Shown here: one piece after another, positions 10,652 to 28,114 of the stretch | Layout: every line of letters begins with the position of its first letter | Numbering within the stretch: the stretch's first letter is position 1 | Source: Calditrichota bacterium | GTDB taxonomy: Bacteria > Calditrichota > Calditrichia > RBG-13-44-9 > J075 | Assembly: GCA_003695285.1 (NCBI GenBank) | Contig: RFIL01000041.1 | Location: forward strand, 1-30,440 | Direction: 5' to 3' | DNA: 30,440 bases | Notes under the pieces: generated by a model | Databases searched by the model: none | The model's input: only the letters and a program-made list of their open reading frames with translations | Told to the model about the DNA's origin: nothing | Position numbers and translations under genes: made by a program

Positions 10652-11656
10652 TTACCATCGCAGGGTTAAAGAGGCTTTGACAGAATGGGCATCTGCCTTC
10701 CAGTCTACGGCCAACCCACTGCGGGGGATGATCATCTCCGCTCTTGATTTCTTACCTTTCTTTTGCATCCCTTGAATAAAAGCGGTAACAATATCCGTCC
10801 CCCAGATAACCCAGATAGCAGTTTGAAAGCTTTTCTCCAGGGAACGATTATCCTGGTAGCTTCGCCAGTAACGGTTCTGGCTTTCTGCATCCCGGGATAA
10901 TTCATAATTCTGCAGGGCTTCTTCCTTTCTCCCCCGGTATTTCAAAACAAAAGCATAGCATATCCCCATTGAGATGGGAGATACAAACCAGAGTTTTTGT
11001 TTGAGATAATAATGCCCTAAACCGGGGATAACAGAGAAGAGAGCGGCTTCCGGGCCTCTTCTGGAACGAGAAGTTTTTTTAGGGATGAACTGTGGTTTTC
11101 TTTGCGGTTTTTCTTCTCTTTTCGGTTCAATTTTTTTGCTACTCCCAACTGATGTCCTGGTGGAGAGGTCCAAATTGGGGGGACGTCGTTGGGCTTTTTG
11201 TAAATAGGGAAGGGGATCCACTTGCTTCCCGTTTTTTAATATGGAAAAGTGTAGATGAACCCCGGTGGCATCCCCGGTCGCACCGGCTTTCCCAATCAGT
11301 TCTCCTGCCTGAACATGCTGTCCCTGCTTTACCAGAATTTGAGACAAATGATGATAACGGGATTTATAATTCCCGGCATGTTGTAGGACAATGGATCTTC
11401 CGTAGCCGGATTGATACCCGGCTTTTACCACCGTTCCGGCTCGCCAGGCATAAACCGGGTCGCCTTCCTTCGCCTGTAAATCAATCCCTTGATGAAATTG
11501 ATTGTCCCTGGGATAAAACGGGTCTGCTCTCCATCCATATAGACTGGTCACATCACGCCATTCACCCAGGGGATGATAAGAAAGGGTATCACTACCAGGC
11601 GATTGTCCGAAAAGCCATTGGCAGAAGCACAGGAGTGTGATTAAAAATTTTCTCAT
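10652..11656 (-). CDS. Secreted M23 metallopeptidase fused to a C-terminal DUF5683-like membrane domain
   Basis: Signal peptide MRKFLITLLCFCQWLFG|Q; intact M23 zinc ligands HQGID and HLHF; Lys/Pro-rich linker; AALFSVIPGLGHYY plus hydrophobic helices; ends SVKASLTLRW; RBS GGAGG. Confidence 0.8.
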   Translation of the reverse strand: MRKFLITLLCFCQWLFGQSPGSDTLSYHPLGEWRDVTSLYGWRADPFYPRDNQFHQGIDLQAKEGDPVYAWRAGTVVKAGYQSGYGRSIVLQHAGNYKSRYHHLSQILVKQGQHVQAGELIGKAGATGDATGVHLHFSILKNGKQVDPLPYLQKAQRRPPNLDLSTRTSVGSSKKIEPKREEKPQRKPQFIPKKTSRSRRGPEAALFSVIPGLGHYYLKQKLWFVSPISMGICYAFVLKYRGRKEEALQNYELSRDAESQNRYWRSYQDNRSLEKSFQTAIWVIWGTDIVTAFIQGMQKKGKKSRAEMIIPRSGLAVDWKADAHSVKASLTLRW

Positions 11657-11712
11657 GGTTATATAAACCTCCCACCTATAGCCGGAGTTCCAGCCCCGGG
11701 AATAACCCGCCT

Positions 11713-12564
11713 TCAGTATTTCAGGTACTTACCAATCGAAATGTAGCTGCCAATTAATCCCAGCATCGTTCCTGTTAGAATCAAAAACCCATAATAATAC
11801 AGGGGTATATGCAAGGTGGGGAACAATGCTGTTCGGATGATATCCACTCCCAGCCACAACAACCCACAGGCGAAAAGACTACCCAGTAACCCCTGAAGTA
11901 TCCCCTCCACAACAAAAGGTCCTTTTATGAACAGGCGGGTGGCTCCCACCAACCGCATAATGGATATCAAATTTCGACGGGAATGTATGGTTAAACGAAT
12001 GGTATTAAAAATGAGCATGGTTGAAATAAAAAAGATGGTTGCCCCCACTGCGGAGGTGATGATAACACCCAGTAAAAAATATTTATTCATTAAGCGAATG
12101 ATATTCCTCTGATAATTAACCTCATCCACTTCTTCCAGGGCTTCAATTTTCCGCACGATGGATTCGATTTCATTCATCTTACGATATCCACCCTTCAATA
12201 CCACGCGGAAAGAGGGGGGAAAAGGATTCGCGTCCAACACTGAGAGAATATCACCGAAGTCGCTCTCAAATTCCTTCAATGCATGCTGAGGCGTGATATA
12301 ATTTACGTAGCCAACCCCATCCAGTGAATTTAAGTATCGGGCTAAAGAATCGACCTGACTCGATGATAAGGAGGGATCGATAAACACTTCCAGTTGGATT
12401 TTATTATACAATTGCTGGAATGAATGGGAGAGATTTTGAACGATCAACCCAAACATTCCAATTAAGGTAAGCGATAACGTCACCGTAACAATCGTTATCG
12501 TAGCCGAAAGTCGTGCTCTTTGAAACCCCGCTAAACCCTCTTTAAGCAAGAAAAACAGCTTCAT
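11713..12564 (-). CDS. ftsX: Cell division ABC transporter permease FtsX
   Basis: Four-TM layout with an extracytoplasmic loop (NPFPPSFRV), IFNTIRLTI, MRLVGAT, PFVVEG; overlaps the ftsE stop by 4 nt. Confidence 0.93.
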   Translation of the reverse strand: MKLFFLLKEGLAGFQRARLSATITIVTVTLSLTLIGMFGLIVQNLSHSFQQLYNKIQLEVFIDPSLSSSQVDSLARYLNSLDGVGYVNYITPQHALKEFESDFGDILSVLDANPFPPSFRVVLKGGYRKMNEIESIVRKIEALEEVDEVNYQRNIIRLMNKYFLLGVIITSAVGATIFFISTMLIFNTIRLTIHSRRNLISIMRLVGATRLFIKGPFVVEGILQGLLGSLFACGLLWLGVDIIRTALFPTLHIPLYYYGFLILTGTMLGLIGSYISIGKYLKY

Positions 12565-13247
12565 TTTTTCTTCCCCTGAATCTGGGATGCCGGAATTTCT
12601 TTATAGAGTCTGCCATTGTCCAACACAATCGTGCGATGGGGATATTGCCGAATCAAATCATAATTATGAGTAGCCATCACCACAGCAGTACCACTACGAT
12701 TGATACTTTCCAATAAACTCAATATTTCTTTCGATACATGGGGATCGAGGTTACCAGTGGGTTCATCGGCAAGTAATACAAATGGTTCGTTTACCAGTGC
12801 TCTGGCAATTGCGACCCGTTGTTGTTCGCCACCGGAGAGTTTATCGGGCATCACATAGCGTTTATGGGTTAACCCTACCCGATTTAACACCGCCAATACC
12901 CGGGGCTTGATCTTTTTCCCCGGAACCCCGATCACTTGTAGGGCAAAGGCAACGTTGTCAAAAACATTCCGATCGGTCAATAACTTGAAATCCTGAAAAA
13001 TGACCCCCACCTTACGTCTTAAATAAGGTATATGGCGAGGGGAGATGGAAGAAGAACTATATTTATCCACAATGACATTCCCCCGGGTGGGGAAAAGATC
13101 CATGTATATCAATTTTAAAAGGGTGGTCTTACCGGCTCCGGTCTTGCCTATTAAATAAACAAACTCCCCTTTCTGAATTTTCAAACTAATATGATCCAGA
13201 ATGGGACGTTTTCCCAGTGTAACACTCACATTAAATAGTTCAATCAT
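12561..13247 (-). CDS. ftsE: Cell division ABC ATPase FtsE
   Basis: [47 protein letters not shown]; adjacent to ftsX. ATG 13247 is preferred over TTG 13253. Confidence 0.95.
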
Positions 13248-13347
13248 CGGCAACCGCTTTTACTGCAATCAAACTTGACCAATTAATACGCCTTATTTCA
13301 CCGAAAACCTTAATATTGTTTCGGGTCTAAAGGAATTTTATTTAACC

Positions 13348-14136
13348 TCAATTGCTTTCTTTGCCCTCTTTTTTCAGAATAAAGTGGGCTCTCCCACTCA
13401 ATGGAGATAGGGGCTCAAGAGAGAATTCATCATACACATGGAGTAAAGTAAATGGTGTTTTTTCCGTTATCAGAGAATGAATATAGGAAAAGTCATATAT
13501 CCGTTGTTTATGTTCTTCTTCAAAAATACCTTCCGGAGTATAAATGCGAATCCAGTTATACTGTATTTTATCTTCTTCATGGTAAAAGCTCTCCCGTGAA
13601 TAAGCATAGTCGTTGTTCAGCACTTCGCTGTCGTAGTAACCCTGAAAATACTGCCGGCAGTGCAACTCGCTGACCAGATCAAAAATAAAGAGCCCACCAG
13701 GGAGAAGCTTTTGGTGTACCATGTTTAGCCCATTTACGACAGCCTCTTCCTCCATCAGATAATTAAAGGTATCGTAGAGACAGGTCATGATCAGATAGGA
13801 TTGCGGCGGAATTTCAACCAAATCCGGCAAACCGCATTGATAGAATGTTCTTTCCGGTACCTTTTTAAGCGCTGATTTTAACATATCCGAAGAAGGATCA
13901 CATCCATCAGCAACCTGTCCGAGACGCCCGATTTCTTTAATAAATCGTCCGGTTCCACATCCTATATCCAGCAGTTTACCCTGCTTCCATACCTTTTCTT
14001 CTTTGCATATTAAAGCAATATATTTCGCCCATTTGCGATAATTCACATGCTCCATCATTTTATCGTACACCAGTGCTAACATACTGTAAGGAGGGATGGA
14101 GCGAAGATTTTTTTTATCTGCCAAATGTGAACGCAT
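13348..14136 (-). CDS. Class I SAM-dependent methyltransferase
   Basis: YSMLALVYD, LLDIGCGTG, DPSSDML, CLYDTFNYL, PGGLFIFD motifs; substrate unknown. Confidence 0.88.
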   Translation of the reverse strand: MRSHLADKKNLRSIPPYSMLALVYDKMMEHVNYRKWAKYIALICKEEKVWKQGKLLDIGCGTGRFIKEIGRLGQVADGCDPSSDMLKSALKKVPERTFYQCGLPDLVEIPPQSYLIMTCLYDTFNYLMEEEAVVNGLNMVHQKLLPGGLFIFDLVSELHCRQYFQGYYDSEVLNNDYAYSRESFYHEEDKIQYNWIRIYTPEGIFEEEHKQRIYDFSYIHSLITEKTPFTLLHVYDEFSLEPLSPLSGRAHFILKKEGKESN

Positions 14137-14319
14137 AGACTAAAATTATCCTGTTATGTATATCATTGACAATGTTTCGGAGAGGTTGCAAAGTCCATGT
14201 GAGGAACCGGTAAGAAATGTGTTCTCCTCTTCCCTAACCTCAACTCAAAAAATATAAGTATCAATACGTTAAAAATAACATGGTAAGACCATCCACCATC
14301 GGATGAATAACATTTCAGT

Positions 14320-14353
14320 AAAAAAGCCGGGAAAACAATGGTCTTCCCGGCTT
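14320..14353 (-). terminator. Rho-independent terminator after icd
   Basis: Minus strand AAGCCGGGAAGAC-CATT-GTTTTCCCGGCTT followed by TTTT, starting ~11 nt after the icd stop. The G:U pair works on this strand. Confidence 0.85.
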
Positions 14354-14364
14354 CAAGATAAAGA

Positions 14365-15606
14365 TTAAAAATTATCAATAATAGCCTGAGCAAACTCTGA
14401 CGTTTTGAGTGGTTTCACATCACCTTCCATCTGGCGAGCAAGGTCGTAGGTAACTCGTTTTTGTTGAACCGCCTTTTCCAGAGCGTTTTCTATAATATCA
14501 CCCACTTCCTTCCATTGCATATACTGGAACATTAACACTCCCGACAGGATGAGTGAACTGGGGTTAACCTTATCCATTCCGGCGTATTTAGGAGCAGTTC
14601 CATGGGTCGCTTCAAAAACCCCAATTTCATCACCAATATTGGCGCCGGGTGCCATCCCCAACCCACCAACCTGTGCCGCACAGGCATCACTAATGTAATC
14701 ACCGTTCAAGTTAGGGGTGGCAATGATGTCATACTCATCGGTGCGGGTTAAAATTTGCTGCAGCATATTATCTGCAATTCGATCTTTTATGACCTTTTTC
14801 CCAGAAGGGACTTCTCCATTGTATTTAGCCCAGAGATCTTCTTCCGTAATAAAATAATCACCAAATTCTTCTTTGGCCACCTCATAACCCCAATCTTTAA
14901 AGGCGCCTTCGGTAAATTTCATGATATTACCTTTATGCATCAGGGTAATGCTTTCCCGATTCTGAGCCAGCGCATACTGAATGGCTTTGCGAACCAGTTG
15001 TTTGGTTCCCGTCTCACTAATCGGTTTGATACCGATTCCGGAATCAACCCGCAGATTAGCACCCAGTTCCTTTTGCAAAAATTCAATCAATTTTTGAGCT
15101 TCCGGGGTACCCTTTTTATACTCAATACCCGCATAGACATCCTCGGTATTTTCCCGGAAAACGACCACATTCATTTTTTCGGGATGTTTTACCGGGCTGG
15201 GAACACCTTTGTAATATTTGACCGGGCGGATACAGGCATAAAGATTCAAAATCTGTCGGATGGCAACATTTAAACTTCGGAAACCTCCCCCAACCGGAGT
15301 GGTTAAAGGCCCCTTGATGGCAATATAATGTTGACGTATCGCTTCAATCGTTTCGTCGGGTAGCCACTGGTTATAGATGGCATGAGCTTTTTCCCCGGCA
15401 TACACTTCCATCCAGGCAATTTTGCGCTTTCCACCATATGCTTTCTCAACAGCGGCATCAAATACTTTTTGAGAAGCGCGCCAGATATCCGGTCCTATCC
15501 CATCTCCTTCAATAAACGGTATAATCGGTTGATCAGGAACCTGATACTCACCATTCTCGAATGTGATCGGTTTTCCCCAATCTGGAACTTGAATGTGTTT
15601 AAACAT
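14365..15606 (-). CDS. icd: Isocitrate dehydrogenase, homodimeric E. coli-type (probably NADP)
   Basis: [81 protein letters not shown]; RBS AGGAG-like. Confidence 0.97.
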
Positions 15607-15646
15607 AGGAGTCTCCTCTCAATACATAATTCCGGTTAGCAGTTAT

Positions 15647-15922
15647 TTATTTGTTGGAAGCGTTCGATCCGCTATCATTCTTCTTATCCGTTTTAGAAGA
15701 CTCGCGTGAAGAAGATTGGTTATTTGTGGTCCCATTGGATTTTCGCTGGTAATCAGTGATATAAAATCCGGAACCTTTAAAAATCAATCCACTTCCACCA
15801 CTAATTAATCTTTCTGCCTTCCCGTGGCAAACGGGACACTCTTCAATGGGAAGATCTTTTATACTCTGAAATTCCTCAAACAGATGTCCACAATCCTTAC
15901 AACGATATTCATACGTCGGCAT
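15647..15922 (-). CDS. FmdB family zinc-ribbon protein
   Basis: MPTYEYRCKDCG...CPVCHG, FKGSGFYITDY, Ser/Lys-rich tail; RBS GGAGG. Confidence 0.9.
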   Translation of the reverse strand: MPTYEYRCKDCGHLFEEFQSIKDLPIEECPVCHGKAERLISGGSGLIFKGSGFYITDYQRKSNGTTNNQSSSRESSKTDKKNDSGSNASNK

Positions 15923-16344
15923 AGTTTACTACCTCCATAATTTAACCCCCAAAATTCAATTCCAGAGGACACTTCCAACTGCTTATGCTTTTTTAACGTC
16001 CATTGGAAACTGAATTAGCCTATTTTTTAGAAGTTGATGACAACTTTAAAATGAACTACCATGATAAATATCGACTGAAATTTTTACCATAACACCAGAG
16101 ACTAAAAAATTTATGATTTTTTTCGCTAAACGCAACAGGTTAAGTTTTTTTCAGCATTAGTCGAAATGCTTTATTCTACTTCGTATGCTCGACCTGGTAC
16201 CTTTAGCTATCCAAAATTAGGAATCATTAATAAGATTCCCCAATCTTCCTTCCGTTACAAAAAATAATATCTCCACCCAATGAAAGCGTTTTCTAAATCT
16301 GTAGGATTTTTTAATTGCGATATAGGGAGTCTTTCGTGATGGGT

Positions 16345-16842
16345 TTATTCTTTCAGATGGGGAAATTTAGCTTCCAGTTTTAGACGAACAACCGGTGGGA
16401 CAAAATTTGAAATATCGCCACCAAAGGATGCCACCTCTTTAACAATGGTCGAATTGAGGTAAGTATATTTTTCATGTGGCATGAGAAAGACCGTGGATAC
16501 CTCCGGAGCCAGACGTCGGTTAACCAGGGCCATCTGAAGTTCATATTCAAAATCGGACACCGCTCTCAGTCCGCGGATGATGGCATTCGCTTTCTTTTCC
16601 CGGGCAAAGTCCACAATCAATCCCTCAAAAGGTTCTACCAGGATTACTGCCTCTGTTTCCATGTCATCCACCACCTGCTGAATCAGGAATACTCGTTCCT
16701 GAACGGTAAGCAAGGGCTTTTTAGAAGGGTTTCTGGCCACGGTAACAATGATTTTGTCAAATAAATGGGATGCTCGTTCAATGATGTCGATGTGTCCGTT
16801 GGTGATGGGATCAAAGGTACCCGGGTAAATTGCGATTTTCAT
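16345..16842 (-). CDS. coaD: Phosphopantetheine adenylyltransferase
   Basis: AIYPGTFDPITNGHIDII, IIRGLRAVSDFEYELQMA, LNSTIVKEVA. Confidence 0.97.
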   Translation of the reverse strand: MKIAIYPGTFDPITNGHIDIIERASHLFDKIIVTVARNPSKKPLLTVQERVFLIQQVVDDMETEAVILVEPFEGLIVDFAREKKANAIIRGLRAVSDFEYELQMALVNRRLAPEVSTVFLMPHEKYTYLNSTIVKEVASFGGDISNFVPPVVRLKLEAKFPHLKE

Positions 16843-17390
16843 ACAACCCCCTTTCTGGTAAAGAATGTAATGATACTGCGATCGAACCGTTTTTGTCGCA
16901 ACACTTCGAAGGCTTCTCCTTCCTCAGGCAGGTGATGTGATTTTTCGCTTTCCAGAACCACTAATCCATATTCCGTTAAATTCGTTTCTTTAAAAAGCAA
17001 CGGCAGAAGCTCTTCATAACGGTTCCATTTGAAGGGTGGATCAATGAAGATTAAATCGAAAGGTTGTTTGTTTCCTTTCAGAAACGTCAGAACATCTTTT
17101 TTGACGATGGTGACAGGTTCAGTAACTTTTACCCGGGCGATATTTTTCCGTAAAACTCTTAGTGAATTAGAAGAATTATCGACAAACGTAACTTCTTTGG
17201 CTCCTCTGCTAAGTGCTTCCAGCCCTAAACTACCGGAGCCGGAGAAAAGGTCTAAGACAAGGGCATCTACAACAAAATCATTTAATAATTGGAAAATATA
17301 TTCTTTAATTCGATCCGTGGTGGGACGGATGGATTGATCCTTTGCAGCAATTAAGTGGCGTCCTTTATACTTACCAGCAATAATACGCAT
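16839..17390 (-). CDS. rsmD: 16S rRNA (guanine966-N2) methyltransferase
   Basis: MRIIAGKYKGR, RPTTDRIKE, LDLFSGSGSLGLEALSRGA, IFIDPPF; overlaps the coaD start by 4 nt. The start is likely 17390 (ORF track 17396). Confidence 0.95.
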   Translation of the reverse strand: MRIIAGKYKGRHLIAAKDQSIRPTTDRIKEYIFQLLNDFVVDALVLDLFSGSGSLGLEALSRGAKEVTFVDNSSNSLRVLRKNIARVKVTEPVTIVKKDVLTFLKGNKQPFDLIFIDPPFKWNRYEELLPLLFKETNLTEYGLVVLESEKSHHLPEEGEAFEVLRQKRFDRSIITFFTRKGVV

Positions 17391-17401
17391 AAGCACAAAT
17401 G

Positions 17402-18478
17402 TTATTCATTAGGGGTAATCAATGTCAAATCAACTCGTGCTTCTAAGGTCCCTCCGGAAATAATCTGTGAATTCTGGGGATAAACGGAGATTTTGTTAAA
17501 TTTTACTGCAGGAAAATCCCTGGCTATCTGACTGAAAAAACTAAACAGAGCATTCTTATTACCGGAAATCCTCAGATAATAAGCGGTGGTAGAGGTGGTC
17601 GCTTTGCGGAAATGGGCACCTTTCAGGAACCGGATGATTCGAACCCCGTTGGTAGAAGCTAACCTACGAATAGCGGGTATTACATCCCGTTCTTCCAATG
17701 CCTCTTTAAAATCACCACCACCCGAGGCGGGTGAATTGGGGAGTGGAACATAAAAATCCGCCTGAAGCTTTTTCTGATCTTCTATAATCTTCTCTGTGAT
17801 ACTTTCAACTGACATCTGAATATCCGGGAAACGGTCTTTGACCGTGCGACGGAAACGAGCTATCTCATCTCGGGAATCGGCCAGAATACTAATGTAAAGG
17901 GCACCGGGGGTCATCACCACCAACGACACCCCCATATCCCGAGTACTGCTATTCACAAAATTCGTAGCATAATTCAGGTTAAATGTGTTCTCACTTTTAT
18001 TCCGGAGATATGCATTTTTTAATGGGGCCGGTAAAACCGGGGTAGAGGCTGTCGGCACCGTTGAAGGAACTGTTGTTTGAGGTTCTGCGGGAGGTTGCTC
18101 AGGTGTTTTGGTTGCCGTAGGTTCCCGTTCCGGTCCTAACCATAATAACACGAACAATGCCGCTAACAGGAGAACACCAATAATCCCCAGAATAATAAAG
18201 AGCCGTTTCTTTTTCGGTGATTCATAAGAAAAACTTTCCTCCTCCCCACTTTCTACCGTTGGGGTGGAGTCGAACAGCACCCCTTCCTCAGTTTCTGGTT
18301 CACTGACGGGTTCCGGAGCCGGGATGGTGGTTCTGTTCTCTGGAGGTTCTTCTTCCGGCTGGATAAATGAAAAATCCATCTCAGTCTTGCTGCTTTCCTC
18401 CGATGGAGTTTCCATCCGTTTTTCCTGAGAGGAAGAATCCTCTTCTTCAGGAGTATTTAACAGATTGATTTTAACCAT
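17402..18478 (-). CDS. Bitopic membrane protein, putative PilN-PilO fusion
   Basis: N-terminal MVKINLL (PilN-type INLL), acidic/Pro-rich linker, KKKR plus TM helix, a first alpha/beta unit (GALYISILADSRDEIARFRR, PilN-like) and a second (YLRISGNKNALFSFFSQIA...LEARVDL, PilO-like). Pattern recognition only. Confidence 0.55.
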   Translation of the reverse strand: MVKINLLNTPEEEDSSSQEKRMETPSEESSKTEMDFSFIQPEEEPPENRTTIPAPEPVSEPETEEGVLFDSTPTVESGEEESFSYESPKKKRLFIILGIIGVLLLAALFVLLWLGPEREPTATKTPEQPPAEPQTTVPSTVPTASTPVLPAPLKNAYLRNKSENTFNLNYATNFVNSSTRDMGVSLVVMTPGALYISILADSRDEIARFRRTVKDRFPDIQMSVESITEKIIEDQKKLQADFYVPLPNSPASGGGDFKEALEERDVIPAIRRLASTNGVRIIRFLKGAHFRKATTSTTAYYLRISGNKNALFSFFSQIARDFPAVKFNKISVYPQNSQIISGGTLEARVDLTLITPNE

Positions 18479-18504
18479 GATCTGTCCTCAAAAATGTTGA
18501 GCAA

Positions 18505-19446
18505 TTAAAAAATATTGGAAAGAGGCTCTACAAAACGATAGGCATTGGTCACATCTAAATTTTCATCCTCTGAAAGCACCTGCCATTCCGTAGATTCCAG
18601 GGGATTAAACACCCTTAAAGGTAACTGACATTTATCTCTTAGAGTTCCCAACCAATCACTCTTAAAATAATAACCAAACAGAAACACCTGAGTAATGGAA
18701 TAAGCAGAACTATCTTCTTCAGCCATTTTTTGAAAATCCTGGAGGGCCTTTTCAAACACTGAAAAAACATCCGCAGTATTCAATTGATCAATTGGCAACA
18801 TCGAACGGGTATAAGGTTTAAATGTAAAGTTTAAAAAATTCTTTTCATCAGAGAGAATAAATTCCAATCCACGTTCCGTGAAATTGACCAGAAGAGTTTG
18901 ACCGATCACATTGGGAAAAAATTTTCGAAAGATTTCATCAATGGCAAAACAGTTCAGATTCATCTGTGATAGCTGAAAACCGGCCTCCCGCGCAATTTGT
19001 CGAGTAAATTCATAAATTTGCTTACGGATGGCCACGGCCAGAAGTTCTTTCATCCCCGATAATTCGCGCTCATAATCCGGTTGATACACTATAAATTCCT
19101 CTACCGGTGAAGTTAAAATATAATTTAACTCGGCCTTTATCAGGGAAAGATATTGGTTCTCGGGGATAAACTGATCCACCAGCACTTTCTTAACAAACCC
19201 CATCCGGGCGGAAAGCAAGAATCGAACGTTCTCGCTACTGAATTCTGCTTTCTCAGCCATCCCTTTTAATTGGTTTGCAATCTGGAGGGCTGTCGTGGTT
19301 TTCTGAAGATTATCATAATTAAGGATAAAGGGTAGCGGTCCTTCAGCTACCCTTTTGATAGAAACACTTTGCCCACCCGTCACTTCCGCCTGGACCCAAC
19401 TGATATAGTTGTCTTGAAAAGCAATACTGTTAATTGTTTCACTCAT
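18505..19446 (-). CDS. PilM-like actin-fold protein with degenerate ATP motifs
   Basis: SIAFQDNYISWVQ (in place of GLDIG), LLAVAIRK, AREAGFQLSQMNLNCFAI, LLVNFTERG, QVFLFG, LPLRVFNP follow the PilM layout; lies directly upstream of the INLL protein. Confidence 0.6.
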   Translation of the reverse strand: MSETINSIAFQDNYISWVQAEVTGGQSVSIKRVAEGPLPFILNYDNLQKTTTALQIANQLKGMAEKAEFSSENVRFLLSARMGFVKKVLVDQFIPENQYLSLIKAELNYILTSPVEEFIVYQPDYERELSGMKELLAVAIRKQIYEFTRQIAREAGFQLSQMNLNCFAIDEIFRKFFPNVIGQTLLVNFTERGLEFILSDEKNFLNFTFKPYTRSMLPIDQLNTADVFSVFEKALQDFQKMAEEDSSAYSITQVFLFGYYFKSDWLGTLRDKCQLPLRVFNPLESTEWQVLSEDENLDVTNAYRFVEPLSNIF

Positions 19447-19455
19447 AATACTCGT

Positions 19456-21171
19456 TTAGTCTTCCGACTCCCAACTCTTGGTTCCATTACTGATATATCC
19501 ATGATTGATGTGTTTCTTTGTGAACACACCATAAACTCGTTCATGGTATCCATTCAAAGCTTCCAGCAGAGATTCTTCGATGCTGGATCTGGCATTGCGT
19601 AAATTAACGGCATCCTGAGGGTTAAATGTGGATTTTAACTCCTCCACGATACCAAAAACCTTCTCATACTCCGGATATATCGCCGGGACATCTTTTTTGA
19701 TCCGCACATCGATTAATGAATCCAACGCCTGAATTTTCTGACCGAAGAACTGTAATCGTTTTTCCAGATCTCCTACCTGTCGGGTTTCCACCCGGGTGGC
19801 AAGAGTATCCAGTGGATTGAGCAGATCTTCAACCATTGGTTTTAACACCGACAGCTTTTTCTCAGTCTGAACGGTATCGATAAAGGTTCTCACCCTTTGA
19901 GAATAACGATAGAAGAGCACATTGTCAAGCGATTGCATCTCCGCCACAATTTCTTTCAAATTTAACACAACTTCCCCACTCTTATCCAGGCGGATTAACC
20001 GATAGCGCTCTTTAACAAAATTCATATAGTTAATCGTGCTATCCAGGTGAGCCCGAACTTTATCCAGGTATGGGAACCAACTCACCTGTTGCAGCGGAGT
20101 CGTTGCTTCCATTAAACGCTCATGAAAAGTATTTAACAAATTCGGACATTCCACCACCAGATTGGTACTATTCGGTTTATAGCTAATGATATACCGCTCT
20201 GTGCCATCAAAGGTGTCCGGGCAGGTAAAATTCCGTTGGTTAAAACCAATGAGCATGGAATCCACTTCATCCAGTCTCAAGATCCCTGGTTGTTGGGTGA
20301 TCAAAAAATTATCGTGGGTGATAAAATCATTATAGATTCCACTCAACGCCTGTTTCTGGGTATCCAAAAGATTGATATTTTGCTGAATATCAATTTGTTG
20401 AAATTCTTTCATGGCTGTATTGATACGATCGATAAATTTTTTCAATCGATCTGCCACACTGGTCACTTTAACCAGATCGGTTTTCTTAATATCCTTCACA
20501 AAATTAAAAATTTTAGTGTATTCGCTGCCCCAGAAATCATCAACAGCCGTCATTTCCACATTGGGCAAGAGATATTCCAGAGAATCAACATAGCGAAGTG
20601 CTAACAGTGCTGTGGTCTGTAAATCCTCCTCATTGATACGTTCCTGTAGCCCATATAGAGAATCCACATAAAGTGTTGCCCGGGCAAAATTCGGAAAGGA
20701 AACACTGGTGTTGAACTTTTCTAAATCCCTTAAAATATCATCTTTCTGGACAACCAGATGATCATAGCGATTAAAATAGCGGGTATTAAATTGGAGATCA
20801 CCGTTAATTTCATCTACCGCTTGTGAAATGGGGACCAGCGCACTGAAGACCGGAAGTTCCAGCACACTATGAATGCTATTATAAAGAGCATTGGTTAATT
20901 CATTAATTTTTTGTTTCACCTGAATGGTGCTATCGTTCTGGATAAATGCCGCAAGTTTTTCCAGTGAATCTGCCGGTAAATAGGAATTGGTTCTGGTATA
21001 ATAAAAACGTTCCGCTTCGTATACCGTTTCAAGATTTTTTCGGCCGATAGTGGTCATTCGTTTTTCTTCCGTCCAAATTTTATTCGGAATGGTGATCGTC
21101 GCCCATAACATCGCGGCAAGAACCACGATCAGTAGCTTTAAAACAATTGACCCCTTCGCTTTCGCCGCCAT
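19456..21171 (-). CDS. Large (571 aa) type IV pilin-like protein with a non-canonical class III signal peptide
   Basis: MAAKAKG|SIVLKLLIVVLAAMLWATITIP has P22 in pilin register, followed by G36, L40, Y50 and Y51; a single Cys pair (C-x24-C); mostly helical body. ATG 21171 has RBS GGAGGAG (the ORF track starts at TTG 21183). Confidence 0.55.
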   Translation of the reverse strand: MAAKAKGSIVLKLLIVVLAAMLWATITIPNKIWTEEKRMTTIGRKNLETVYEAERFYYTRTNSYLPADSLEKLAAFIQNDSTIQVKQKINELTNALYNSIHSVLELPVFSALVPISQAVDEINGDLQFNTRYFNRYDHLVVQKDDILRDLEKFNTSVSFPNFARATLYVDSLYGLQERINEEDLQTTALLALRYVDSLEYLLPNVEMTAVDDFWGSEYTKIFNFVKDIKKTDLVKVTSVADRLKKFIDRINTAMKEFQQIDIQQNINLLDTQKQALSGIYNDFITHDNFLITQQPGILRLDEVDSMLIGFNQRNFTCPDTFDGTERYIISYKPNSTNLVVECPNLLNTFHERLMEATTPLQQVSWFPYLDKVRAHLDSTINYMNFVKERYRLIRLDKSGEVVLNLKEIVAEMQSLDNVLFYRYSQRVRTFIDTVQTEKKLSVLKPMVEDLLNPLDTLATRVETRQVGDLEKRLQFFGQKIQALDSLIDVRIKKDVPAIYPEYEKVFGIVEELKSTFNPQDAVNLRNARSSIEESLLEALNGYHERVYGVFTKKHINHGYISNGTKSWESED

Positions 21172-21241
21172 AGACTCCTCCAAAGTGTTAGTGTGATAAA
21201 ACAGTTCTAATATACTACTCTGAATAGTTTAAAAACGGAAA

Positions 21242-21270
21242 AGTTTAATAAAATAACTGTAAAATGTCAA
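21242..21270 (-). promoter_or_regulatory. Sigma70-type promoter for the pilin-like/pilM/pilNO/rsmD/coaD operon
   Basis: Minus strand TTGACA-N17-TAAACT, about 70 nt upstream of ATG 21171. Confidence 0.6.
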
Positions 21271-23664: not shown

Positions 23665-26600
23665 ATGGATCGAAAGCATAGCTGGTACTTTTATGTATTA
23701 ACGTATGCTATAGCATTGCTTTTGGTGGGGCATATCCTGTGGAAATATTCTCCTCTGAAAAATGAAATCGAAAGCTATGCTATAGAAAAATTAAGAGAAT
23801 ATACTGAAAGTTCTGTTCTCATTCAGGACTTTTCTATTGGTTTTCAAACTGTCACCCTCTCCGGTATCAGTCTTACCGACCGAAAAGCTACCAACAATAT
23901 TGAATTAGAAGAGCTTCGTATAGGCTTTAATCCTTTTAAATTCATCACAGAAAATTTTAATTTTCAGAAGGCTATCAGTTCAATCACTCTGTACCAACCC
24001 CGGGTGATTCATTATGTTTCAGAACCTTCTGAGAAAGACACGATAAGGATTACCCCTGAACTCATCTTGAAAAAAGTAATAAGCAATCTTCAAAGAGTTC
24101 ACAATATCAACCAAATCAGAATTGAAGATGGGGTCATTTATCGAGTCGATGACTCCAGCTGGAAAGATGACACCCAGTCTGATGAGATAGATGCTTCGAC
24201 ACCCTCCCGCAATGAATGGGAAATTGTGCTCTTTGAAGGATTGACGGGGGACATGAGGTATCTCCCCTCCCGAAATCTGATAACTCTCGATTTACAAGGC
24301 ACTCTGGGGAACACCGGAGAATCTGTTGTACAAATTCGGGGATATCTGGATTCCTATACTGATCAAATGAATATCTCATTGATTTTTGATGACTGCAAAC
24401 TGACTACTGACTGGCCTTTCTGGAAATTAGATCATATTCAACTGGAAAATGCCTATCTCGATGGAATAATCCATTTGACCAATCAGGATAGCACATTCAA
24501 CCACTTTAACTTAAGCGGAACTGTGGAAGCTCGGGACTTCCGGGCAAGTTTCTTTAATCAAAAAGCCAGCGCTGAGCACATTCGAATGCGCTTTCTCCAG
24601 GATACTCTGATAATTGACCCCTTTCCCTGTCAGATTGAAGATGGGCAGGGAACTTTTTATGGTTCCATACGGCTTTTCCCCTCCCCAATCGCTGACTGGT
24701 ATCTGGAAGCTGAAGATTATTCTGTCACTTTTCTGGAAAAGTCACATGACATCTTTGAATATGCAGACAGTGGGAAAGTAAAAGGTAAAGCTCACTTCTA
24801 TGGCCCCCTTCGTAAATTACAAATAGATGCTGACCTATTCTGCCCTCAACTCCAATATGCCGTTGTTCCTTTTCACTCAGTAGAAACCAATCTCCATTAT
24901 GATGTGGCATCAAAGTTACTCACCTTCAATCATCTCAGAGCTGATTTTTTCAATTTCAGGACTCAGGGGGAAGGAGAGGTGAATTTTTCGAACAATCAGA
25001 TGACCTTAAATCTGATCTCCGACATTTTTGTACCCCCCGGATACTTTACCTTATTAAACCGACTGAACGGCAGCACCATATTTTTAAGAACGCGATTCCA
25101 GGGTGATATTTCCACCAAGCTATTTGGTGGGAACTTTCGGTATTATGTAGAAGGCGAAGATACTCTTATCTCCCATGGAGGAGGCCCCTTTACCCTGGAT
25201 AATCAACTTTTTAAATTTAACATTCAATCTCAAAATTTTTCACCGGTTATGCTCTTTACCGGTGAAATCGAAGATGTATTTAGCAATCCTCGGTTAATGG
25301 TCTTTGATATCAAAAACTTTCCGGTTGAAACATTAACGCTCAACCCTCTTTTAGCCAGCTGGATTCATGGTCGTCCCGTGAATATATACTTCTCTGGCCC
25401 TTATTACTCGCTGGCCAGCAAGTTGAAAATTTTATCCCGAACTTCCTCCACACCTATTGTAACGGTTAGTGGTAATATCCGAGATATTTTTCTTGACACC
25501 CAACAGTTTCGGGGGAACTTCCTTCTTAACACAGCGCCCCAAAAACTCGATGGCACGTTTGAGATTGGTTATACCAGGCACGGTGTCAATATTCAGCTAA
25601 ACTCAAAAAAATTGTTCCAGGGCGAACTGTTTGTCGGTAACGCCCCCGATTCTCCTTTTAACGGCACCATCCATTTATACAACTTTTCTGTGGCTGACTA
25701 TCTGGCTAATAATCCTCGCTGGGCGCAAATCATTACTTCTGGAGAACTTCAGGGGGATATGCAGATCAGGGGAACGGTAAAGAATCCATCCATTCAGTTT
25801 GATTTAAAAGCCTCTGATTTCATTGTCAACAAGATTGGATATTATAATACCAGATTAGCGGGCAGTCTTGAAGATTATTCCCTGAATTTTAAGGACCTCT
25901 GGTTAACACTGAACGGGGTTCCGGTGATAAATGCTGACATGAAGTGGGATTTATTGAAAGATAGTTTATACCTCACCATCAAGGGGGAGGATATTGAGAG
26001 TAATTTTCTGTCCGAGACCCTCTTTCCCGGGAAAGAGATGATTCAGGGAAAATTTACCTATGCCATCGTTCTGAACGGCAACAGTTCGCACCCGGTGATG
26101 TATGGCGACATCCAGATTCGAGAAGGTAATGTGAAAGGTAATCCCTTTCAAAACATCATCATTACTTTCGAAGATTCTTTAACAGCTAATGGAGATTTCT
26201 GGACACTTAAAGATCATCTTTTCAAAATAAGAAAGTTTCTGTATATCAATAAAGACGAGTATACAATTGAGGGAAAAGGCATCATTGGTGTTGATAAGGA
26301 AGCCCCTCTTGATATCACATTGAATATACAAGGCAATGTTCTGGCAGAGCTTCCCAAGCTCAATCCCTATTTCCGAAATCCCCAATCCTATGGATTCATC
26401 AAAGCTCGGGTTACCGGAAGCAGAGCCGTACCGGTGTTAAAGCAACTAAAAATGCAGGTAGTGAATGGATATCTGGAGTTCGATGGCATTCTGCCCCCGT
26501 TAACCAACCTGCAGATGGAAGCTGAACTGGATGAATCCGGAACATTCATTCATATCAACACTATTGAAGGCTATTTACTGAACCACTGGGCAAGGATTTA

Positions 26601-27903
26601 CAATATTGAACACGTCGAAGTAGATGGAAGACCCCTCCAACCGTGGTATTTTGAAGATGTGGATATCAATCTGGGTATCCTGGTACTGGAAACCGACCCC
26701 CGCGGGATACCCTTATCCATTCCCGGATTAATGGAGGAGGGAGACATCGGTTATTTTGCAGCAGCCGGCTTACACCCCGATGAAAAATTTTATTTTGCCG
26801 GACCACCGAATCTTCCTTATGCCCGGGGAAAAGTGACGCTCTTTAACAGCCGGGTGACCTTCCCTTTTATAGGAATGTATGAAGATGGTGAATTTTCATA
26901 TGCTGAGGAAAATCAAGTTATCGACTTTCTGATGAATATGCGCTGGGATGTGATGGCTGTCCCGGGTAAAAACAATCGCTACTTCGTGAATATTCCGGCA
27001 TACGTCGGTGAAGTGTTCATGGATCTCAACATTGACAACTCTTCTCCGGGCCTCCACTTTACCGGAAGGCTGATTGATGACTCCTTTCGAACCGAAGGGA
27101 AAGTTGAATCTTCCCGGGGGTTGGTGGAATATCTGGATGTGAAATTCCGGGTAGAACGGTTTGGCGCCGAATTCAATCGATTTGAAATTTTTCCCGAGGT
27201 CTATGGAAAAGCCTATACTACAGTACGAGACACTACCAGTGACTTCCCGATAGATATTTATCTGGTCCTGTATGTTATTGATCCGGTTACCAAAAAGGAA
27301 GTAAATAAGGGACGCTGGGAAGACTTTCGCTTTAAACTGGTTTCTCAGAATCAGATGGTTGGGGAAACACAGGAACAGGTGCTGGCTTATCTTGGCTATA
27401 GTGTACAAAATTTACAGAATAAGGCAGAAGAGGTGGGGCTTACCATGACGGAAAACTATCTCATTCGACCCCTTTTCCGCCCCCTGGAACGTCAGCTGGA
27501 ACGGATGTTACGCCTGGATTATGTACGGTTAAGGTCTCGCTTTACAACGAACCTTTTCTACCTGAGCTTTCAGGATCGAGCAAAATTATTTAATCGATTG
27601 AATTATAACACTCCCAACATTGTCAACCTGAATCTTGATCCTGCCCTGCTCCTGCTACAGAGTTCTGAATTTACTATGGGCAAATACTTGCTCAGGAACG
27701 TTTACGTCGCATATTCGGGATTGCTCGTTTCCGGTTATGAAGAATCAAAGCTGGGGTTGAACCACTCGCTGATGCTGGAATTTCGACTCCTTTCTAACCT
27801 GCTACTGGAAACCCAATACGATAAATTCCAATTCAATCCATTCTATAATAGTTCCATCGATAATGATTTTCGAGTAAGATTGCGATATTCCGTTACCTTT
27901 TAG
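23665..27903 (+). CDS. TamB/AsmA-like (DUF490-type) envelope protein, 1412 aa
   Basis: N-terminal TM anchor, long beta-rich repetitive body, C-terminal amphipathic strands (GKYLLRNVYVAYS...RVRLRYSVTF) typical of TamB; immediately upstream of an Omp85 gene. Confidence 0.7.
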   Translation: MDRKHSWYFYVLTYAIALLLVGHILWKYSPLKNEIESYAIEKLREYTESSVLIQDFSIGFQTVTLSGISLTDRKATNNIELEELRIGFNPFKFITENFNFQKAISSITLYQPRVIHYVSEPSEKDTIRITPELILKKVISNLQRVHNINQIRIEDGVIYRVDDSSWKDDTQSDEIDASTPSRNEWEIVLFEGLTGDMRYLPSRNLITLDLQGTLGNTGESVVQIRGYLDSYTDQMNISLIFDDCKLTTDWPFWKLDHIQLENAYLDGIIHLTNQDSTFNHFNLSGTVEARDFRASFFNQKASAEHIRMRFLQDTLIIDPFPCQIEDGQGTFYGSIRLFPSPIADWYLEAEDYSVTFLEKSHDIFEYADSGKVKGKAHFYGPLRKLQIDADLFCPQLQYAVVPFHSVETNLHYDVASKLLTFNHLRADFFNFRTQGEGEVNFSNNQMTLNLISDIFVPPGYFTLLNRLNGSTIFLRTRFQGDISTKLFGGNFRYYVEGEDTLISHGGGPFTLDNQLFKFNIQSQNFSPVMLFTGEIEDVFSNPRLMVFDIKNFPVETLTLNPLLASWIHGRPVNIYFSGPYYSLASKLKILSRTSSTPIVTVSGNIRDIFLDTQQFRGNFLLNTAPQKLDGTFEIGYTRHGVNIQLNSKKLFQGELFVGNAPDSPFNGTIHLYNFSVADYLANNPRWAQIITSGELQGDMQIRGTVKNPSIQFDLKASDFIVNKIGYYNTRLAGSLEDYSLNFKDLWLTLNGVPVINADMKWDLLKDSLYLTIKGEDIESNFLSETLFPGKEMIQGKFTYAIVLNGNSSHPVMYGDIQIREGNVKGNPFQNIIITFEDSLTANGDFWTLKDHLFKIRKFLYINKDEYTIEGKGIIGVDKEAPLDITLNIQGNVLAELPKLNPYFRNPQSYGFIKARVTGSRAVPVLKQLKMQVVNGYLEFDGILPPLTNLQMEAELDESGTFIHINTIEGYLLNHWARIYNIEHVEVDGRPLQPWYFEDVDINLGILVLETDPRGIPLSIPGLMEEGDIGYFAAAGLHPDEKFYFAGPPNLPYARGKVTLFNSRVTFPFIGMYEDGEFSYAEENQVIDFLMNMRWDVMAVPGKNNRYFVNIPAYVGEVFMDLNIDNSSPGLHFTGRLIDDSFRTEGKVESSRGLVEYLDVKFRVERFGAEFNRFEIFPEVYGKAYTTVRDTTSDFPIDIYLVLYVIDPVTKKEVNKGRWEDFRFKLVSQNQMVGETQEQVLAYLGYSVQNLQNKAEEVGLTMTENYLIRPLFRPLERQLERMLRLDYVRLRSRFTTNLFYLSFQDRAKLFNRLNYNTPNIVNLNLDPALLLLQSSEFTMGKYLLRNVYVAYSGLLVSGYEESKLGLNHSLMLEFRLLSNLLLETQYDKFQFNPFYNSSIDNDFRVRLRYSVTF

Positions 27904-28114
27904 TGTTTCATCTCCCCACCTTATAGTGGGAATTTCCACCAAAAAACAGGACTTCTTTTGTCATTGACCACTCTCGCCTAAAACTCATGGAAAAATCCAT
28001 CCTCCGGGAACTTTCCCTCAGAATATGCGAATAATGTATTTACTTTTTAATTTGCAAAAAAAACAATCATCTTTTAAGTTTTACAGTTTGGATATATTAA
28101 AAGGAATGGGGTTT

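Follow-up and report, generated by a model that had tools for sequence, protein, structure and literature searches.

What do three consecutive genes for hypothetical proteins, which recall parts of a type IV pilus (T4P) and stand directly upstream of the housekeeping genes rsmD and coaD, do for the cell that carries them? The question is raised by a 30,440-nucleotide stretch of DNA (contig RFIL01000041.1 of assembly GCA_003695285.1, hereafter the window) from a metagenome-assembled genome of Calditrichota (Calditrichia; 587 contigs, 89% complete). An initial annotation proposed that the three genes encode a giant pilin, a PilM-like protein and a fusion of PilN with PilO, and that they form a self-contained pilus-like module. 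The analyses reported here reveal that the cassette is real, ancient and uncharacterised, that it is made of known parts, and that it is an orphan subcomplex, not a minimal machine. No description of the cassette was found in the literature on the pili of Calditrichaeota, Fibrobacter or Marinimicrobia.

The open reading frame (ORF) listing places five consecutive ORFs on the minus strand, in the order pilin-like, PilM-like, PilN-PilO fusion, rsmD and coaD, and the junctions, checked on the sequence, are spaced by 9 nt, 26 nt (containing GAGGA), 5 nt and a 4-nt overlap. The three ORFs and the gaps of 9 and 26 nt were therefore as initially annotated, but the start of the first gene was not. The listing had this gene at 19456-21183 (575 aa from a TTG at 21183); because this TTG falls within a GGAGGAG Shine-Dalgarno region, and because all homologues open with an equivalent Met-Ala, the gene almost certainly starts at the ATG at 21171 and encodes 571 aa. 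Homologues of the three genes numbered 26, 63 and more than 30, the figure of 63 being given for the pilin-like gene.

The 313-aa product of the second gene scores below curated thresholds, with 17.5 bits against 27 for PF11104 (E 2e-3) and 22.6 bits against 133 for TIGR01175 (E 4.7e-5), and it shows a weak hidden Markov model (HMM) match to the Amuc_1101 family. When a profile of 31 orthologues was compared with the sequences of the PDB, a single match was obtained, to PilM of Myxococcus xanthus (3jc8, E 8e-8). Orthologues at the same position pass the Pfam PilM_2 family, at 70-80 bits in KSB1 and other lineages and at 31.7 bits in Kryptonium. In the ESM Atlas model of the window protein (predicted template modelling score, pTM, 0.87), 303-306 of the 313 residues superposed on PilM_2 clusters at template modelling (TM) scores of 0.82-0.85. 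The actin-like PilM fold that had been proposed for this protein was thus found over as many as 306 of 313 residues (TM 0.85), and these data support its identification as a PilM homologue with a full-length PilM actin-like fold. The gene is not part of a pilMNOPQ operon: neither pilP nor pilQ follows it, and rsmD-coaD stand there instead.

The 358-aa product of the third gene gave no Pfam or NCBIfam PilN or PilO HMM match, a profile of its family yielded only noise against PDB sequences, and a word-based homologue search returned only the protein itself, owing to its low-complexity tail. Its AlphaFold2 (AF2) model, with a predicted local distance difference test (pLDDT) score of 76 overall and above 90 in the folded part, comprises an acidic disordered tail, a transmembrane helix (residues 91-113), a Pro-rich linker, a helix (151-175) and two alpha-beta-beta-alpha-beta-beta domains. 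An exhaustive structural scan covering 48,161 chains matched domain 1 (166-247) to XcpY (6ghu, Z 8.9), EpsL (2w7v, Z 7.9), PulL (8a9w, Z 7.4) and Thermus PilN (4bhq, Z 7.4); these Z values lie near the noise level of the scan, yet four members of one family stand within the top ten of the 48,161 chains. Domain 2 (259-358) matched PilO (2rjz, Z 12.6; 3jc8_O, Z 11.6; 5uvr, Z 10.5) as well as PulM/EpsM (Z 7.5), and Foldseek agreed for PilO, ComC and GspM, the probability being 1.0 for the PilO fold. The two-domain region also superposed, over 207 residues and at a TM score of 0.70 by target, on an Atlas cluster that carries Pfam PilN and PilO in one chain. In the AF2 model the PilO-like part has no transmembrane helix of its own and is fused behind the PilN-like domain. 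Both ferredoxin-like domains expected of a PilN/PilO fusion were thus present, and these data support the assignment of the protein as a single-chain PilN-then-PilO. Residues 1-90 have an isoelectric point (pI) of 4.05 and consist of Asp and Glu to 28%. A DFSF-like motif (18365-18376, minus strand) is conserved inside this otherwise variable acidic tail and may, to judge from the alignment, be a second linear binding motif.

The N-terminus of the fusion reads M-[VI]-K-[ILF]-N-L-[LFM] in 28 aligned orthologues, with Asn5 invariant, and MVDINL[ILF] in KSB1 and its allies. It had been proposed that this INLL-type motif is held by the PilM-like protein, and when the PilM-like protein was modelled together with fusion residues 1-22, MVKINLL was placed in the PilM-like groove, with an interaction prediction score from aligned errors (ipSAE) of 0.84 compared to 0.06 for the best control; the mark of 0.84 was attained by 58 of 80 solved complexes and by 2 of 110 mismatched pairs. 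Modelled contacts to the groove involve peptide residues 1-7 and 9-11, and the predicted groove holds five of the 25 invariant or near-invariant residues of the PilM-like protein (p about 0.05). The proposal therefore stood in silico: the model supports binding of the MVKINLL peptide by the PilM-like protein, and the PilM/INLL clamp appears to be intact.

For the pilin-like protein, a Foldseek search of the whole model against the PDB gave no match at E <= 0.001, a search of AFDB clusters with the model returned only the protein itself and one family member, the N_methyl HMM (PF07963) found no match in the family, and Pfam assigned no consistent family to 33 members. The AF2 model (pLDDT 91) consists of a 58-residue alpha1, helical bundles at residues 71-312 and 350-544, and a small sheet made up of residues 332-345 and 546-565. 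The core was recognised in the Atlas search only, where this discontinuous element, spanning residues 12-571, superposed on GspG (T2SSG)/N_methyl pseudopilin clusters over 109-115 residues, with a root-mean-square deviation of 2.6-3.0 and TM scores of 0.55-0.67 by target. An exhaustive profile search revealed relatives of 146-744 aa whose similarity is confined to the first 80 residues and the C-terminal motif; the short members are of ordinary pilin size and show sub-threshold N-terminal matches to GspG (12 of 22), PilA, ComGC and ComGE. The Gly-Ser site and the C-terminal NHGxIxxGxKSWE are invariant in the family alignment, in which a short basic leader, a hydrophobic helix and a Cys-Pro...Cys-Pro hairpin also recur. 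With a pilin fold core and an invariant Gly before a hydrophobic alpha1, the pilin-like identity assigned to the first gene was upheld, and these data support a description of the 571-aa protein as a pseudopilin core of the GspG type that carries two helical insertions.

The residues around the putative processing site were surveyed in 34 genomes (positions G-1, +1 and +5), 14 from the family of the window (f1) and 20 from its sister families (f2 and f3). Position +1 is Ser throughout the pilin-like family, not the canonical Phe or Met. Position +5 is Lys in 14/14 genomes of f1, and in f2 and f3 it is Glu in 19/20 and Gly in one; Glu is likewise found at +5 in most short-form relatives from other lineages, including KSB1. 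The invariant Gly-Ser site and the Glu at +5 in most clades suggest that the pilin-type N-terminus is still under pilin-like constraint. Lys at +5 was also considered as a marker of the loss of the prepilin peptidase PilD and was rejected, as it marks all of f1 with or without PilD and follows the phylogeny. The pilin-like proteins are acidic, with a median pI of 5.7 and a net charge of -13 in the window protein. A GspK-like protein of the canonical cluster in the same genome (G000:C521:386-1402) has a Lys-Gly-Ser junction before its hydrophobic helix, as does the pilin-like protein of the window, which hints that the two may share processing specificity.

The order to which the window belongs was represented by 37 genomes, namely the genome of the window and 36 relatives. 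The PilM-like gene is present in 37/37 of these genomes, diverged copies occur in the majority of the remaining families of the class, and the fusion gene is present in 36/37 (35 of the 36 relatives and the genome itself). The pilin-like, PilM-like, fusion, rsmD and coaD genes follow one another in every locus of the order long enough to display them, and the synteny of the three module genes on which the initial annotation depended is conserved in every locus examined. Among species-representative genomes, the family was found in Calditrichota, KSB1, Candidatus (Ca.) Kryptonia/Thermokryptus and metagenome-assembled genomes labelled Cytophagia or Bacteroidota; Atlas clusters hint at additional relatives in Fidelibacterota and Fibrobacterota, which are leads only. 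A scan of related loci with a six-member alignment and an exact pattern yielded at least 34 loci.

Outside the order of the window the arrangement is ftsX-hrcA-grpE-dnaJ-comEA-pilin-like-PilM-like-fusion-rsmD-coaD, and in 22/36 loci the pilin-like gene is immediately preceded by a ComEA-type HHH_3 gene; this adjacency is also seen in Kryptonia loci where hrcA-grpE-dnaJ no longer adjoin. In the genome of the window, dnaJ-comEA are located on another contig, apart from the module. Two loci from other lineages (L050 and L129) display the order methyltransferase-ftsE-ftsX-hrcA-grpE-dnaJ-comEA-module-rsmD-coaD-Zn_ribbon_8, and the window, compared with them over 11713-17396, runs from the module through rsmD, coaD, a Zn-ribbon gene (15647-15922), icd and a methyltransferase gene to ftsE and ftsX; the block has therefore been rearranged, and hrcA-grpE-dnaJ-comEA have been split off. 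Eight Kryptonia loci (L060, L064, L067, L080, L082, L083, L085 and L086) encode a pilin-like protein of 146 aa and a PilM-like protein of 292-293 aa, the gene for the latter overlapping rsmD.

The initial annotation had noted that no pilP, pilQ, ATPase, pilC or pilD lies near the module, and none was found in the window; for ATPase, platform, secretin and prepilin peptidase genes, all matches in the genome are on other contigs. Contig C182 encodes PilB, PilC and PilD together with a canonical G|LTLIE pilin; contig C164 a 597-aa GspE-type ATPase with GspF; contig C123 a further GspF-family gene; contig C77 a PilT-like ATPase; and contig C521 a GspK-like protein, a 519-aa PilM-PilN fusion, two small bitopic proteins and a secretin. 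No type IV filament is known to form without an ATPase and a PilC/GspF platform, and the module cannot assemble a filament alone because it contains no ATPase, platform protein, secretin or peptidase. The claim that it is self-contained is accordingly not supported. ATPases of the T2SSE family were detected in 11/11 genomes tested, including every one in which no PilD was detected; the five such genomes tested and the two Kryptonia genomes without a Peptidase_A24 match encode a GspE-type ATPase of ~597 aa, and most also a PilT-like ATPase of ~430 aa. A cluster resembling a type IV filament (T4F) system in Ca. Kryptonium thompsonii (L094, G086:C9:34000-52000) encodes GspF, a 595-aa GspE-type ATPase, a PilT-like ATPase, proteins of 534 and 293 aa, a secretin, and four small proteins with atypical pilin-like N-termini that lack G|FxxxE (e.g., MGQQQLLLIV); no Peptidase_A24 was detected in this genome.

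The genome of the window is flagellated, with FlhA present. In the order, however, no FlhA match was found in 11/37 genomes, and four more gave partial, atypical matches only; all of them keep the module. The genomes lacking FlhA include the closed genome G082 as well as G084 (98% complete) and G061 (100% complete), and FlhA is also absent from two KSB1-type genomes with the full module. In four genomes from the family of the window (G054, G057, G058 and G059), none of which has a full-length FlhA match, open frames of great length (600-1800 aa) contain partial matches to FHIPEP (the C-terminal part of FlhA), a case of domain reuse.

Among known systems, the PilM-PilN-PilO complex of type IVa pili (T4aP; Pseudomonas aeruginosa, M. 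xanthus and Thermus thermophilus) shares with the module the PilM actin-like fold, an INLL-type peptide on a bitopic partner, the order M-N-O and, in the periplasm, a ferredoxin-like domain of PilN type ahead of one of PilO type. In the module, however, PilN and PilO form one chain with a single transmembrane helix and an acidic tether of ~83 residues between motif and membrane, pilP and pilQ are missing, the genes are fixed upstream of rsmD-coaD, and the sequences fall below the family HMM thresholds. The type II secretion system (T2SS) offers further likenesses: domain 1 fits best on the periplasmic domains of GspL (XcpY, EpsL and PulL) and domain 2 on GspM, and the pilin core is nearest to GspG-type pseudopilins. 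The cytoplasmic domain of GspL is fused to its transmembrane segment, whereas the PilM-like protein here is separate. GspK is an oversized minor pseudopilin with a helical insertion and without Glu5; the pilin-like protein is similarly oversized, with helical insertions and, in the family of the window, no Glu5, but it exceeds GspK by far in the length of its insertions (about 240 and 195 residues), and no gspC-O operon surrounds the module.

Single-chain PilN/PilO proteins also form an ESM Atlas cluster, commonest in Aminicenantota (Pfam PilN in 100%, PilO in 98%), with the same two-domain periplasmic architecture; these proteins are ~253 aa long and recognisable by Pfam, whereas the window protein has a long acidic tail and is not. 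The T4P-like Amuc_1098-1102 cluster of Akkermansia is linked to the module by the weak match to the family of the PilM-like Amuc_1101 and by structures of the PilO-like Amuc_1100, which match domain 2; the module shows no sequence-level membership, however, and the Akkermansia cluster includes a secretin. Another oversized pilin is ComZ of T. thermophilus, the insertion of which, in contrast to those described here, is not known to be helical. ComZ is described as competence-associated and located at the tip (PMC6561018), and the ancestral neighbourhood of the module includes comEA; the window protein, however, is acidic, and the comEA link has been lost in this order. Proteins for natural transformation in Riemerella (PMC8459023) were considered and set aside as different proteins, unrelated to the module. 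In Campylobacterota, homologues of PilMNO, termed FcpM, FcpN and FcpO, have become parts of a flagellar cage (PMC11870540), and in these bacteria a fused pilMN lies in the canonical T4P cluster while an orphan MNO operon stands beside a housekeeping gene (PMC11870540; 10.1101/2023.04.27.537399). FcpMNO and the PilMNO homologues of Helicobacter pylori thus resemble the module in being an orphan PilMNO-derived operon, lineage-wide, beside a housekeeping gene and apart from a T4P cluster with fused pilM-pilN; the module differs in that it does not co-occur with flagella, includes a pilin-fold gene, has PilN and PilO fused and belongs to other phyla, those of the Fibrobacterota-Chlorobiota-Bacteroidota (FCB) lineages.

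Which structure, then, does the module serve? Three T4P-type parts in one tight array could be taken for a self-contained minimal pilus machine, but neither the window nor any of more than 60 related loci contains an ATPase, platform, secretin or peptidase gene, and this explanation is highly improbable. Least probable of all is an accessory of the flagellar motor analogous to FcpMNO: the precedent in Campylobacterota and the flagellated state of the genome speak for it, but such a role is unlikely because the module persists in genomes without FlhA, namely 11 of the order and two of KSB1 type. A dedicated pseudopilus module for DNA uptake (competence), working with ComEA, would fit the comEA-type gene directly upstream in 22 of the 36 loci outside the order and the precedent of the giant competence pilin ComZ (PMC6561018); given that comEA stays with dnaJ on another contig in the order of the window, that its adjacency may be a mere part of a larger conserved housekeeping block, and that the acidity of the pilin-like proteins is unlike that of a DNA receptor, this role is improbable. 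An exapted stand-alone scaffold is possible, if doubtful. The three proteins would then no longer serve a filament; they would make up a complex associated with the envelope, structural or regulatory in nature and housekeeping in its role, in keeping with the position of the module in a housekeeping array (ftsEX, hrcA-grpE-dnaJ and rsmD-coaD) across phyla, its persistence without a detectable prepilin peptidase, the Lys at +5 throughout f1, the canonical PilM-PilN fusion already held by the T4F cluster of the genome, and the same split between clusters for fcpMNO (PMC11870540) and the H. pylori homologues (10.1101/2023.04.27.537399). On the other side stand the invariant Gly-Ser site with Glu at +5 in most clades and the T2SSE ATPase in every genome tested, and no partner structure was identified. 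The repurposed envelope machine suggested in the initial annotation is likewise a possibility, with a published precedent in FcpMNO (PMC11870540). Exaptation would tentatively be placed in the common ancestor of several FCB phyla (Calditrichota, KSB1, Kryptonia and probably Fidelibacterota and Fibrobacterota), where the new role would be a housekeeping one in the envelope that needs neither prepilin peptidase nor filament assembly; if true, this would mean that the T4P alignment complex had been exapted independently for a second time, the first being the flagellar cage of Campylobacterota.

The explanation to which we give roughly half of our confidence is that the module is an accessory for alignment that serves a single special pseudopilin on a trans-encoded T4F machine, because the prepilin-like site is conserved, because Glu5 is kept in most clades, and because T2SSE ATPases occur in every genome tested. 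The descent of the parts from type IV filaments is solid. The module as a whole would be an ancient orphan subcomplex derived from the inner-membrane platform of such a filament (T4P or T2SS). Its cytoplasmic PilM-like protein would clamp the N-terminal MVKINLL of the bitopic fusion, the periplasmic part of which would form a covalently linked pseudo-heterodimer of PilN-like and PilO-like domains on an unusually long acidic tether, and the pseudopilin-fold protein, with its alpha1 in the same membrane, would probably be a client of this platform or a partner to it. The module would then act as a dedicated adaptor that positions or primes the pseudopilin for the machine encoded elsewhere (GspE-type ATPase, GspF, PilT-like ATPase, PilM-PilN fusion and secretin); the pseudopilin itself would act as a cap or as a subunit close to the membrane, not as a polymerising major pilin. 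However, it should be noted that several points weigh against such an accessory module. Contact between the module and the trans-encoded machine is something that we infer, and the canonical machine already owns a PilM-PilN fusion and a PilO-like gene. Peptidase_A24 was not detected in 13/37 genomes of the order (the closed genomes G064 and G082 included) nor in two Kryptonia genomes, and all of these keep the pilin-like gene; therefore, classical prepilin processing may not be required. Lys at +5 in the family of the window argues against ordinary polymerisation, and Kryptonia keep the comEA, pilin-like and PilM-like genes with no fusion gene at the locus. Moreover, the ipSAE of 0.84 may stem from the memory that the model has of solved PilM-PilN structures, and the window proteins themselves fall below Pfam and NCBIfam thresholds.

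Studies of the PilM-PilN-PilO platform usually deal with it as a component of complete machines for pili or secretion. The diverged copy described here accompanies a single pseudopilin, very variable in size (146-744 aa), and rsmD-coaD across several phyla that have been little studied. If the module serves a trans-encoded machine, it shows one machine using a second, dedicated alignment module; if it has been exapted, it represents a new cellular use of pilus parts. Either way, three 'hypothetical' proteins in hundreds of metagenome-assembled genomes receive names and testable partners, and a natural single-chain PilN-PilO is now at hand for structural work.

Table 1. Coordinates of the module, its protein parts and the flanking signals in the window.
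Feature	Position	Strand	Basis or remark
Sigma-70-like promoter motif, TTGACA-17-TAAACT	21242..21270	-	10/12 matches; in the 244-nt intergenic region upstream of the pilin-like gene
Pilin-like ('giant pseudopilin') gene	19456..21171	-	571 aa from ATG 21171
Leader MAAKAKG, short, basic, ending in invariant Gly; then Ser (+1), Lys at +5	21151..21171	-	alignments
Alpha1, long hydrophobic/amphipathic N-terminal helix, residues 8-65 of the 575-aa frame, pilin-type membrane anchor	20989..21162	-	AF2 model
Helical insertion 1, residues 71-312, following alpha1 and preceding the first beta hairpin	20248..20973	-	missing in family members of 146-185 aa
Beta hairpin of the pilin core sheet, with the Cys pair CPD...ECPN	20149..20190	-	alignments and AF2 model
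Helical insertion 2, residues 350-544	19552..20136	-	AF2 model
C-terminal three-stranded part of the core sheet, signature NHGxIxxGxKSWE	19489..19548	-	alignments and AF2 model
PilM-like gene	18505..19446	-	313 aa, cytoplasmic actin-fold protein
PilN-PilO fusion gene	17402..18478	-	358 aa, single chain, bitopic
MVKINLL, PilN-type motif, predicted PilM-binding peptide	18458..18478	-	alignment and complex model
Disordered acidic cytoplasmic tether, ~83 residues	18209..18457	-	alignment and AF2 model
Single transmembrane helix, residues 91-113	18140..18208	-	AF2 model
Periplasmic domain 1, residues 151-245, helix plus alpha-beta-beta-alpha-beta-beta, GspL/PilN-like	17744..18028	-	structural scan
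Periplasmic domain 2, residues 259-358, PilO/GspM-like	17405..17704	-	structural scan and Foldseek
rsmD (16S rRNA m2G966 methyltransferase)	16839..17396	-	TIGR00095, 169 bits vs cut-off 117.5; 5 nt past the fusion gene
coaD (pantetheine-phosphate adenylyltransferase)	16345..16842	-	TIGR01510, 209 bits; overlaps rsmD by 4 nt
Terminator-like hairpin	16219..16240	-	~105 nt past coaD; consensus scan only

The near-consensus sigma70 promoter of the initial annotation is present as a motif, but 14 promoter-like motifs were found in the region compared to 13.4 expected from shuffled sequence; because this frequency is at chance level, TTGACA-17-TAAACT is a motif match and a candidate only, not evidence of a promoter. 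The co-transcription with rsmD-coaD and the constitutive expression proposed in the initial annotation are putative, their basis being the gene spacing, this motif and the synteny. At the other end of the array, the terminator-like hairpin is a possible end of the transcription unit, as judged by its consensus.

The genes farther from the module in the window were also inspected. On the minus strand, downstream of the module (10652-13253), lie genes for an M23 peptidase, FtsX and FtsE, which are envelope housekeeping genes. On the divergent plus strand, upstream of the module and past hydrolase and asd genes (23665-30436), are encoded a 1412-aa protein and a protein of the Omp85/BamA type with POTRA repeats; in related loci, the place of the 1412-aa protein is occupied by TamB.

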